The notes under the pieces: model-generated
What the model was told of the DNA's origin: nothing
Seen by the model: the letters and a program-made list of their open reading frames with translations, nothing else
Database searches by the model: none
Assembly (NCBI GenBank): GCA_045580165.1
Contig: JAZNNG010000077.1
Location: 1,810 to 65,809, forward strand
Direction: 5' to 3'
Length of the DNA: 64,000 nucleotides
From: Eubacteriales bacterium
GTDB lineage: Bacteria; Bacillota; Clostridia; Oscillospirales; CAG-272
Translations under genes and position numbers: made by a program
In this document: positions 1-62,565 of the stretch, in pieces
How positions within the stretch are numbered: the stretch's first letter is position 1
Layout of the letters: every line of letters begins with the position of its first letter

Positions 1-594
1 GCGGGTAAGATAATAAAGGCAGTAGTTGCTGCACAAAGTCTCCCCGTAACCGTAAAAATACGCGCAGGCTGGGACGAAAACAGTATTAACGCGGTAGAGC
101 TTGCTAAAATTGCCGAGGATAGCGGAGCGTCTATGATATGCGTACACGGACGTACACGCGAGGATATGTACGGTCCGAACGTCAGACTCGATGTTATCAA
201 GGCGGTGAAGGGAAGTGTTAACATCCCCGTTCTCGCAAACGGCGGCATAATGAATGCGGATGATGCGATAAGAACGCTTGAACTTACGGGCGCAGACGGA
301 GTTATGATAGCTCGCGGAGCAATGGGTAACCCGTGGATATTCGAGGAGATCGACGCACGGCTTGCAGGAAAAGCTTATACTCCACCTGAGCTTGATGAAA
401 GGATAGAGACCGCGCTTGAGCACGTTGCGCTTCTCATCAAAGAGAAGGGTAGTGTTACCGGTGTTCGCGAGGCAAGAAAGCACGTAAGCTCATACACCTC
501 GGGTGTAGTGGGCGGTGCGCAGGCGAGAGGCAGAATAAACTACGCAAACTCTTATGAAGAATTTGCAGAAATATTAAACGGACTCTTAAAATAA
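1..594 (+). CDS. dus: tRNA-dihydrouridine synthase, C-terminal part (5' end outside window)
   Basis: Frame 1 is open from base 1. The translation (ICVHGRTREDMY...NIPVLANGGI...GADGVMIARGAMGNPWIF) is typical of the Dus TIM barrel plus C-terminal helical domain. Confidence 0.85.
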   Translation, partial: AGKIIKAVVAAQSLPVTVKIRAGWDENSINAVELAKIAEDSGASMICVHGRTREDMYGPNVRLDVIKAVKGSVNIPVLANGGIMNADDAIRTLELTGADGVMIARGAMGNPWIFEEIDARLAGKAYTPPELDERIETALEHVALLIKEKGSVTGVREARKHVSSYTSGVVGGAQARGRINYANSYEEFAEILNGLLK

Positions 595-1883: not shown

Positions 1884-2010
1884 CTATATACACAACTTTT
1901 GAACAAAAATCTAACATATTTTTGGATTTTTTCGAATAGGTCTTTACCAAAAATACCATATTGTAGGTGAAATTTCATTATGACAATAAGCTCGATTTGA
2001 AATATAACAA

Positions 2011-2043
2011 AAGAAGTGCGACGGTCAGACCGTCGCACTTCTT
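2011..2043. terminator. Stem-loop terminator downstream of the SOS-regulated ORF
   Basis: AAGAAGTGCGACGG-TCAGA-CCGTCGCACTTCTT perfect hairpin, followed by a T-rich tract on the minus strand. Confidence 0.65.
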
Positions 2044-2055
2044 TTACCGTGAACC

Positions 2056-2367
2056 TCAAAGCACGTATCTTCTGTTGCCTACCTTGACTGCGAATTTAAC
2101 GAGCCTGTGGTGCTTTGAAAAGTGAGAAAGAAACTTGAAAAGTATATCTATTTTTGCTTTTCTTTCAGCGTAGTCAGCTTCGATTCCGCCTATCTCAACA
2201 ACTGTGGGACGCTTTGTGTTAGCAAGCTCATTTAAGCGGCGGATAAACGAGAAGAGAGTATAGTCGTCTGCTCCGATTGCTTTGGCAGCAATGCCTACAG
2301 TGGAGTTGCTTCTTCCGCTTCTGTATAAATTAGTTCTGTAGTATCTTATATTTGTTGTTGCTGTCAT
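2056..2367 (-). CDS. Hypothetical 103-aa protein, candidate SOS (LexA)-regulated gene
   Basis: ATG at 2367 is preceded by GAGGTG. The longer 132-aa track ORF would begin inside the promoter. I recognise no TM segment and no family. The unit has its own terminator. Confidence 0.65.
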   Translation of the reverse strand: MTATTNIRYYRTNLYRSGRSNSTVGIAAKAIGADDYTLFSFIRRLNELANTKRPTVVEIGGIEADYAERKAKIDILFKFLSHFSKHHRLVKFAVKVGNRRYVL

Positions 2368-2384
2368 TGTAATCACCTCGTAAT

Positions 2385-2461
2385 CGAACATTTGTTCTTT
2401 TGCAAATTCATTATACCAAACAAATGTTCGGTTGTCAATATAATTTCCGAACATTTGTTCG
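2385..2461 (-). promoter_or_regulatory. Consensus sigma-A promoter (TTGACA-17-TATAAT) with three LexA/Cheo boxes
   Basis: Read on the minus strand: CGAACAAATGTTCG (2448-2461), -35 TTGACA (2433-2438), CGAACATTTGTTTG inside the spacer (2417-2430), -10 TATAAT (2410-2415), AGAACAAATGTTCG (2385-2398). Confidence 0.7.
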
Positions 2462-2513
2462 ATTTGTTAAAAACTAACAAATTCGAGCTTGGATTTAGGT
2501 GAATATGACAAAA

Positions 2514-2537
2514 AGCGAGCCGCTTTTGCGACTCGCT
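2514..2537 (-). terminator. Rho-independent terminator of the prfB-tkt transcription unit
   Basis: AGCGAG...CTCGCT stem followed by a T run on the minus strand, directly after the tkt C-subunit stop. Confidence 0.6.
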
Positions 2538-18158: not shown

Positions 18159-18258
18159 TGCGTGGAAAGCTTTTTTATTTATTGAGTATACTTAAAACAG
18201 TTGACACACACTTAAATATAAAGTATAATATGTATAATTATATTAAAATAGGTGTAAT

Positions 18259-29688: not shown

Positions 29689-29881
29689 TCCTTTCAAGAA
29701 CAGTGTTTTTTTGCATAGGTACACGCATAATATACCATTTATACATTATACTACAACAAACGGCTTTTTGCAAGAGTTTCGGGGAATATTCTTTCAACAA
29801 CTTGATTATCGCATACACCTTGACACAGAACGAAAAAAGATTTATAATACTAACGTCCGCATATGCGGCACGGAGGTGCTT

Positions 29882-39314: not shown

Positions 39315-39384
39315 TCGCTTTAACGCTTTAGCGAAGTAATGCGATGTCGTGATTGATTATATCACTACTTTTATGGCCTGTCAA
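39315..39384 (-). promoter_or_regulatory. Sigma-A promoter of the yerC-his operon with repeat element in the leader
   Basis: Minus strand TTGACA (39379-39384)-17 nt-TATAAT (39356-39361). The leader contains CGCTAAAGCG-TTAAAGCG (plus strand CGCTTTAACGCTTTAGCG, 39315-39335). Confidence 0.5.
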
Positions 39385-62399: not shown

Positions 62400-62565
62400 A
62401 TATATACCTCGTTTCTTTAGGTAATTCTACACTAAGCGGTATTATTTTTCAAGCGCGAAGTCTAAAAATTTACAGTTTATATAATTTTAGTTTTTATATT
62501 TCTTCCTTGACATGCACAAGGTAATTTATTATAATTGAATCAGAAAACAGAAAGGAGGTGTCATT

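Follow-up and report, generated by a model that had tools for sequence, protein, structure and literature searches.

The locus considered here raises the question of what a cell keeps behind a consensus promoter that is covered by three putative repressor sites, and which signal would release it. It lies on the minus strand of a 64,000-nucleotide stretch of contig JAZNNG010000077.1 from an uncultured Eubacteriales bacterium (assembly GCA_045580165.1), which was analysed as a whole and is called the window in the following, and it consists of a short gene for a protein of 103 amino acids together with its own promoter and terminator. Judged from the sequence and its conservation, control of this gene by LexA within the SOS response, with repression at up to three sites, is very probable. 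That the product is a stoichiometric cytoplasmic growth or division checkpoint effector is proposed by analogy and more tentatively, at somewhat less than an even chance. The complete statement, in which the cassette is a monocistronic SOS gene repressed by LexA, has a triple-operator promoter of the yneA type and encodes a checkpoint or arrest effector, is likewise possible, though nearer to doubt than to confidence.

Between positions 2470 and 2365, the minus strand reads in the order TTAACAAAT-CGAACAAATGTTCG-GAAATTATA-TTGACA-AC-CGAACATTTGTTTG-G-TATAAT-GAATTTGCAAA-AGAACAAATGTTCG-ATTAC-GAGGTG-ATTACA-ATG. Putative LexA box 1 (CGAACAAATGTTCG, 2448..2461) lies 9 nt upstream of the -35 hexamer TTGACA (2433..2438), at about -58 to -45 of the predicted transcription start (2401..2403, inferred from the -10 spacing, 7-9 nt downstream of TATAAT). 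Putative box 2 (CGAACATTTGTTTG, 2417..2430) occupies the 17-nt spacer, and its 3' TG is also the TG of the extended -10 element TGn (TGGTATAAT, 2410..2418, with TATAAT at 2415-2410). Putative box 3 (AGAACAAATGTTCG, 2385..2398) would lie over transcript positions of about +6 to +19. The promoter scan scored TTGACA-17-TATAAT as 12/12, with TG preceding the -10 hexamer. A ribosome-binding site, GAGGTG (2374..2379), is placed 6 nt before the ATG at 2367, and the coding sequence, stop codon included, spans 2056..2367. Downstream follows an intrinsic terminator (1999..2046) with an 18-bp perfect stem (2046-2008), a 3-nt loop and a U-run, which folds with a free energy of -30.7 kcal/mol (z = -7.2). 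The 5' boundary is formed by the terminator of the gene for the C-terminal transketolase subunit (tkt; 2510..2537, minus strand, 10-bp stem AGCGAGTCGC/GCGGCTCGCT, AAAA loop and T-run), which is kept in orthologues. The unit is thus monocistronic and bounded by two terminators, with the transketolase subunit gene upstream and a gene for an extracytoplasmic function (ECF) sigma factor downstream. Direct reading of the sequence therefore upheld the layout of the original prediction at every position, from the consensus promoter, the box 9 nt upstream of the -35, the box filling the spacer and the third box over the first transcribed bases to the monocistronic unit with a strong ribosome-binding site and its own terminator, wedged between the tkt terminator and an ECF sigma gene.

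The consensus applied to the boxes was of the Firmicutes LexA (Cheo) type, GAAC-N4-GTTC, and the LexA motif of the host clade itself may differ from it. With up to two mismatches allowed, this consensus gave five hit rows in the 64 kb, four of them on the three boxes (box 1 was hit on both strands); 0.93 were expected, and five were reached in 0 of 100 shuffles. Each of the boxes carries no or one core mismatch, and perfect Cheo cores were found, in 290 kb comprising the window and related loci, only at the promoter of the 103-aa gene. The boxes also agree with the operator of Clostridioides difficile recA, AGAACAAATGTTTG (PMC4234289), and with the Clostridium thermocellum LexA motif from DNA affinity purification sequencing, which equals that of Bacillus subtilis (PMC8457756). 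As regards the proposed checks of the sites and of lexA, the sites fit the Firmicutes consensus, and a tblastn search of the window found neither lexA nor recA. Exact 12/12 promoters occur five times in the 64 kb and are not rare in this genome. The other four (18201-18229, 29820-29848 and 62507-62535 on the plus strand, 39356-39384 on the minus strand) are far above the shuffled expectation, and the organism evidently uses near-consensus sigma-A promoters often.

Evidence for a function of the boxes comes from the alignment of ten orthologous promoters, whose proteins are 57-94% identical to that of the window and for most pairs of which synonymous divergence (dS) is at or near saturation. 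Little or no variation is seen in the three boxes, the two hexamers, the TGn and the ribosome-binding site, with box 1, the -35 hexamer and GAGGTGA fully invariant; the drifting parts of the same alignment are the 9-nt spacer between box 1 and the -35, the spacer between the -10 and box 3, and the leader. The operators are evidently under selection. The single non-consensus base of box 2 (2417-2418), GTTTG where GTTCG would be canonical, is invariant as well, and as it makes the TG of the extended -10, it appears to serve both LexA and RNA polymerase.

Beyond this alignment, all intact promoters of orthologues that were examined have two or three boxes, even where protein identity falls to 38% or the upstream context differs; the exceptions are L006, in which the promoter is gone, and L008 and L013-L016, whose contigs end just upstream of the gene. 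Box 1 and TGnTATAAT occur in every layout, and the downstream box in every orthologue examined. In one clade (L009-L012, L030), the spacer box is missing, and the downstream box is accompanied by box 1 and, 26 bp (2.5 turns) away from box 1, by another upstream box; the relative with 38% identity (L023) keeps box 1 and an exact CGAACATATGTTCG as downstream box, followed by a leader of ~200 nt. In the window, box starts are 31 bp (boxes 1 and 2) and 32 bp (boxes 2 and 3) apart, and the claim that all three face the same side of the DNA stands there. In orthologues, boxes 2 and 3 are 32-34 bp and boxes 1 and 3 62-66 bp apart; this variable spacing and the extra box at 2.5 turns indicate that same-face phasing, which is only loosely kept, is not a conserved requirement.

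Some further observations were made at these promoters. Directly 5' of box 1, an AACAAAT/ACAAAT flank (2462..2468, minus strand) occurs in all promoter layouts including that of the 38%-identity relative; the arrangement at this point is ACAAAT-CG-AACAAAT, which resembles an additional LexA half-site and is invariant across orthologues. The ~200-nt leader of L023 (5795-6000), in the most divergent clade (P0010), separates the boxed promoter from the gene without an obvious Shine-Dalgarno sequence, and neither significant structure (z = -1.6) nor a convincing upstream open reading frame (ORF) was found in it. All Logan contigs of L013-L016, also of the P0010 clade, break 20 nt upstream of the start (position 1-20). 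In L006 (1340-1400), box 1 is joined directly to the sequence downstream of box 3, with a deletion of 63 bp comprising the -35, box 2 and the -10, which would be either a natural promoter-less allele that arose via box-box recombination or an assembly collapse on the repeated boxes.

An independent view of such promoters was obtained from metagenomes, where the pattern TTGACA-NN-CGAACNNNNGTTYG-N-TATAAT matched at least 120 loci (L031-L150), a sample conditioned on a perfect promoter with a spacer box. Among the matches listed, about a dozen of the downstream genes are lexA (Pfam LexA_DNA_bind + Peptidase_S24) and several are Y-family polymerases (IMS); recG-like, SbcD-like, FtsK-like, IrrE-like and radical-SAM/HHH genes, transposases and several small orphans were also found. 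A Cheo box within the spacer of a consensus promoter, given its occurrence ahead of lexA and Y-family polymerase genes, evidently constitutes a general SOS promoter module, which is used by autoregulated lexA itself. The 120 matches listed comprise 92 with the spacer box only, 21 with one additional downstream box (mostly lexA), three with one additional upstream box and four with at least three boxes. All four of the last group drive genes for proteins of 121-245 amino acids with a basic N-terminus, one transmembrane helix and a C-terminal LysM domain, i.e. of YneA type. Their layout, [box]-8/9-TTGACA-2-[box]-1-TATAAT-8..13-[box], is that of the cage in the window, with a three-box match to L075 and L141, and lexA is located divergently upstream in the two multi-box loci long enough to tell. 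Four cases are a small number; they nevertheless lend independent support to the suggestion of the original prediction that a triple operator on a maximal promoter follows the logic of tightly silenced effectors. Regulation in the manner of a division inhibitor is, by this analogy, probably the best functional clue for the cassette. As a practical rule, at least three Cheo boxes caging a consensus promoter would pick out division-inhibitor-type genes and could be used to find more effectors.

Small unannotated families also recur behind spacer-box promoters among the matches listed, namely an 86-88-aa DUF6809 family (~7 loci), a 90-aa orphan starting with MEFSTNVD (~5 loci) and a 56-aa zinc-ribbon protein (three loci), and so do transposases similar to TnpB/IS605, IS30 and IS1595.

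The 103-aa ORF itself is evidently a real gene under purifying selection. Six close relatives were identified among 5.8 billion proteins searched, five more distant ones, down to 39% identity, were added when 1.84 billion representatives were scanned exhaustively with HMMER, and two profile iterations led to saturation at ~30 clusters. All of these clusters are unnamed or annotated as 'hypothetical protein' and come from metagenome-assembled genomes labelled Eubacteriales, Oscillospiraceae, Ruminococcaceae or Clostridia. Ratios of non-synonymous to synonymous divergence (dN/dS, Nei-Gojobori) against the window gene lie at 0.06-0.2 in the majority of pairs and reach 0.34 at most, and dS is near or beyond saturation; low dN/dS at saturated dS argues that the ORF is translated and constrained. 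Conservation of both the ORF and the boxes in orthologues had been set beforehand as a refutation test, and both proved to be conserved. The term 'orphan' is thus correct insofar as no known family is recognised, but the protein is not a singleton and belongs to a clade-restricted family.

Several database gene models of this family (P0001, P0004, P0005, P0019) are 132 amino acids long, corresponding to 2056-2454 of the minus strand in the window. This longer model was rejected, as its start is an ATG inside box 1 (CGAACAAATGTTCG), its extension is translated promoter, and a 1-nt indel between boxes removes the extension in orthologues. The start at 2367 (MTA...) with its GAGGTG ribosome-binding site is invariant in orthologues; the 103-aa start call is evidently correct and the database models are wrong. 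Short forms of 66-78 amino acids, which begin near residue 26-40 of the family alignment, were also noticed (P0009, P0011, P0027) and could represent truncated calls, pseudogenes or paralogues that have lost part of the N-terminus.

The protein is basic, with an isoelectric point (pI) of 10.4 (9.6-10.3 in the relatives), 19 Lys+Arg versus 8 Asp+Glu residues and a net charge of about +11, and the N-terminal segment of the family is conserved and rich in Arg and Tyr. Scans of the window protein against Pfam, PHROGs, NCBIfam and PADLOC and a Pfam scan of 23 family members yielded nothing meaningful. The Pfam and NCBIfam models of SulA, DinI, RecX, YolD, YebG and SymE were matched neither by the window protein (E <= 10) nor by any of the 23 members (E <= 1), and no LysM domain was detected in these members. 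No transmembrane segment was found in the window protein, with a maximal Kyte-Doolittle value of 1.04 over 19 residues, whereas the anti-sigma-like protein encoded next to it reaches 2.68. Searching PDB sequences with a profile returned only noise at E > 0.2, and a protein-pattern scan of JGI metagenomes found no family member. These results are in line with the original description of a product without a transmembrane helix and without a recognised family.

AlphaFold2 models were built from alignments of 11 and 23 sequences and reached mean predicted local distance difference test (pLDDT) scores of 79.2 and 84.9, respectively, the latter with a predicted template modelling score (pTM) of 0.76. 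The predicted topology is β(8-13)-α(23-30)-α(38-49)-β(55-60)-α(63-68)-α(70-86)-β(90-96)-β(99-102). Foldseek searches of PDB and BFVD with two models found nothing at E < 0.001, again in line with the lack of a recognised family. The best full-length resemblance is to barstar (TM-score 0.53/0.59, root-mean-square deviation 4.1 Å, probability 0.77), which at E = 0.26 is not significant; generic Rossmann/AAA+ cores are among the further matches. The order of secondary-structure elements in barstar, which we take to be the same as in the model (β-α-α-β-α-α-β), is a lead only. Membership in the barstar family (PF01337) was rejected on account of an hhalign probability of 0.2, a weak Pfam Barstar match in only one of the 23 members (E = 0.19), the opposite charge and the lack of a toxin partner nearby. 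The modelled fold is thus a small parallel α/β domain, possibly barstar-like, and is left outside the barstar family.

The genomic context adds information on the inheritance of the gene. It is convergent with dus, encoding a tRNA-dihydrouridine synthase, in all 14 distinct loci recovered, and its upstream neighbours vary by locus (tkt, a PHP-domain gene, AraC-type regulators or an FtsX/ABC pair), with no conserved partner gene across these loci. Relatives were found neither in IMG/VR nor, by tblastn, among INPHARED phages and PLSDB plasmids. The fixed site next to dus and the lack of phage, plasmid and viral relatives therefore point to a vertically inherited, chromosomal, stand-alone gene, and an origin from a mobile element or from a phage or plasmid antirepressor was rejected on these grounds. 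The ECF sigma gene (1290-1883) and the gene for a transmembrane anti-sigma-like protein (712-1293), both on the minus strand, form a 1.4-kb insertion between the cassette terminator and dus that is present in the window only (596-2002). In L020, with 94% protein identity, the pair is missing and the terminator is kept, abutting dus directly next to its stop codon. An operon with the ECF sigma gene was rejected, since a strong terminator intervenes and the pair is absent from L020. In relatives where it abuts dus, the terminator is bidirectional. A gathering-threshold Rfam scan of the window reported only one tRNA, outside the cassette, and a permissive scan of the cassette gave sub-threshold hits only, driven by the terminator hairpin. 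In one genome only (L001, 6737-9527), a serine recombinase, a ParB-like gene and a Mob_Pre relaxase are located just past dus, which suggests an integrated mobilisable element beside the locus.

Taken as an SOS checkpoint gene, the cassette might work as follows. In undamaged cells, LexA dimers would occupy the three Cheo boxes and keep the consensus sigma-A promoter TTGACA-17-TGnTATAAT silent, with box 1 blocking the approach to the upstream promoter (UP) element and the -35, box 2 filling the spacer and abutting the -10, and box 3 covering the first transcribed bases. Upon DNA damage, RecA-stimulated autocleavage of LexA would have to clear all three sites, and the promoter would fire late and in a switch-like manner, after deep or prolonged LexA depletion. 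The consensus extended -10 promoter and the strong ribosome-binding site would then give a burst of product, which would act by binding and not by catalysis; a conserved basic pI of ~10, the small size and the lack of a match to a catalytic family fit a binder.

Several points weigh against a checkpoint effector under LexA control. The window protein has none of the features of known division inhibitors, i.e. no transmembrane helix, no LysM domain and no similarity to SulA. No lexA-type gene was found among the called genes of the orthologous loci over flanks of at most 10 kb per side (shorter where contigs end), and the gene is not adjacent to lexA, where all characterised SOS division inhibitors of Gram-positive bacteria are encoded (PMC6851548). 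At yneA loci, some of the boxes also serve the divergent lexA promoter, which inflates the box count and weakens the four-of-four association. A yneA-like gene at lexA is already known from related Clostridia (PMC8457756) and may occur in the host clade too, which would make a second division inhibitor less needed.

Among the other explanations, an SOS-induced nucleic-acid-binding protein, which would coat, protect or process DNA or RNA (as a nucleoid-associated, end-binding or single-stranded-DNA-binding protein) without arresting division, would account for the net charge of about +11, the pI of 9.6-10.4 across the family and the conserved Arg/Tyr-rich N-terminal segment, and a maximal promoter and ribosome-binding site would imply the high copy number of a coating protein. 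It is nevertheless considered unlikely, as the protein matches no nucleic-acid-binding family or fold and as repair and protection genes, among the metagenome matches listed, typically have one or two boxes, not three. A small, soluble protein that is predicted to be SOS-induced could also modulate the SOS machinery by targeting RecA filaments or the cleavage of LexA, and would then be analogous in function to DinI or RecX. RecX-like regulators are basic, as is the 103-aa protein, but DinI works via an acidic DNA-mimic helix, no Pfam match to either family was obtained, the gene is unlinked to recA, and such genes do not usually have triple operators, all of which makes this role improbable.

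SOS toxins and bacteriocins, too, are typically silenced tightly by several operators, and a stand-alone toxin in the style of TisB or SymE, causing killing or persistence and possibly paired with an unseen RNA antitoxin, would be a costly gene whose promoter loss by box-to-box deletion in L006 could be understood. That deletion may, however, be an assembly collapse, and neither an antitoxin ORF nor an adjacent co-transcribed antitoxin is present at this monocistronic unit. No antisense promoter was found in 1800-2700 by the promoter scan, no Rfam element lies above threshold at the cassette, and there is no similarity to toxin families or PADLOC models; stable inheritance at one chromosomal site and absence from phages, plasmids and viral contigs also speak against a toxin, which is given little chance. 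The structural resemblance mentioned above (TM-score 0.53/0.59, probability 0.77) would favour a barstar-fold inhibitor or immunity protein that neutralises an endogenous nuclease or toxin during SOS. The chance of this is slim: the Foldseek E-value of 0.2-0.3 is not significant, the hhalign and Pfam results are as weak as described, barstar is acidic and the 103-aa protein basic, and the neighbourhood has no conserved gene for a toxin or nuclease partner. Finally, the palindromes might not be LexA sites at all, representing operators of another repressor or repeats without a role in SOS, and the failure to find lexA in the window by tblastn would agree with this. The close fit to the Firmicutes LexA consensus, including one orthologue with an exact CGAACATATGTTCG, the agreement with the C. 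thermocellum and C. difficile LexA motifs and the identical promoter design upstream of lexA and dinB-type genes elsewhere render it very improbable.

Effectors that evolve fast, are specific to a lineage and link DNA damage to growth arrest are part of nearly all SOS regulons. The present finding is tempered by the fact that lineage-specific SOS genes without a known function are no rarity, as well as by the frequency of consensus promoters in this genome and by the uncultured state of the hosts. No description of the 103-aa gene family was found in the literature searched. A survey of the gut SOS meta-regulon from 2014 covered COG-assigned genes only (PMC3998124) and therefore could not have seen this gene. 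If the proposed checkpoint effector is true, the family would reveal a novel target within the cell or a novel mechanism of arrest upon damage, and would also provide a marker of SOS activity for metatranscriptomes of these organisms. A further step would be to regard the family as a novel class of SOS checkpoint proteins, soluble and cytoplasmic, which in Gram-positive anaerobes use a yneA-type promoter, stop division or growth from within via a target unlike that of the membrane-anchored YneA, SosA and ChiZ, and replace or supplement YneA in an uncultured Oscillospiraceae clade; this is rather doubtful at present.

Compared with known systems, the promoter cage is the same as that of YneA and its clostridial counterparts with a transmembrane helix and LysM domain, and a small, lineage-specific, monocistronic gene is also common to both; LexA repression via several operators is predicted here, and for the lexA/yneA region three LexA sites have been reported in both B. 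subtilis and C. thermocellum (PMC8457756). The 103-aa protein differs in being without a transmembrane helix and LysM domain, predicted to be cytoplasmic, basic and α/β, and unrelated in sequence, and its gene is located between tkt and dus, whereas yneA is divergent from lexA. SosA of Staphylococcus aureus is likewise a short LexA-repressed SOS effector restricted to one lineage (PMC6851548), although here the regulation is predicted; with 77 amino acids, an N-terminal transmembrane helix, an extracellular C-terminus and a gene next to lexA, SosA has features of which none applies to the window protein. YneA, SosA and ChiZ are all small membrane proteins encoded next to lexA. Barstar, the barnase inhibitor, is of similar size but differs in its opposite net charge, and neither profile similarity nor a partner toxin gene connects it to the family.

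Colicin and bacteriocin promoters with tandem LexA boxes are comparable in that operator stacking delays and sharpens the SOS induction of a costly product; they differ by a Gram-negative box type, two overlapping boxes, a plasmid-borne location and operons with immunity and lysis genes. SulA of Escherichia coli, which is soluble, cytoplasmic, stoichiometric and tightly repressed by LexA, is the closest model for how the 103-aa protein might work, although the two share neither sequence nor fold similarity and SulA has 169 amino acids and a single operator of the type CTGT-N8-ACAG. The regulatory architecture is thus already known, and the effector family, with its fold class left unassigned, is new: the same tight promoter logic is found on an unrelated soluble basic protein away from lexA, in abundant uncultured Clostridia of gut and rumen type.

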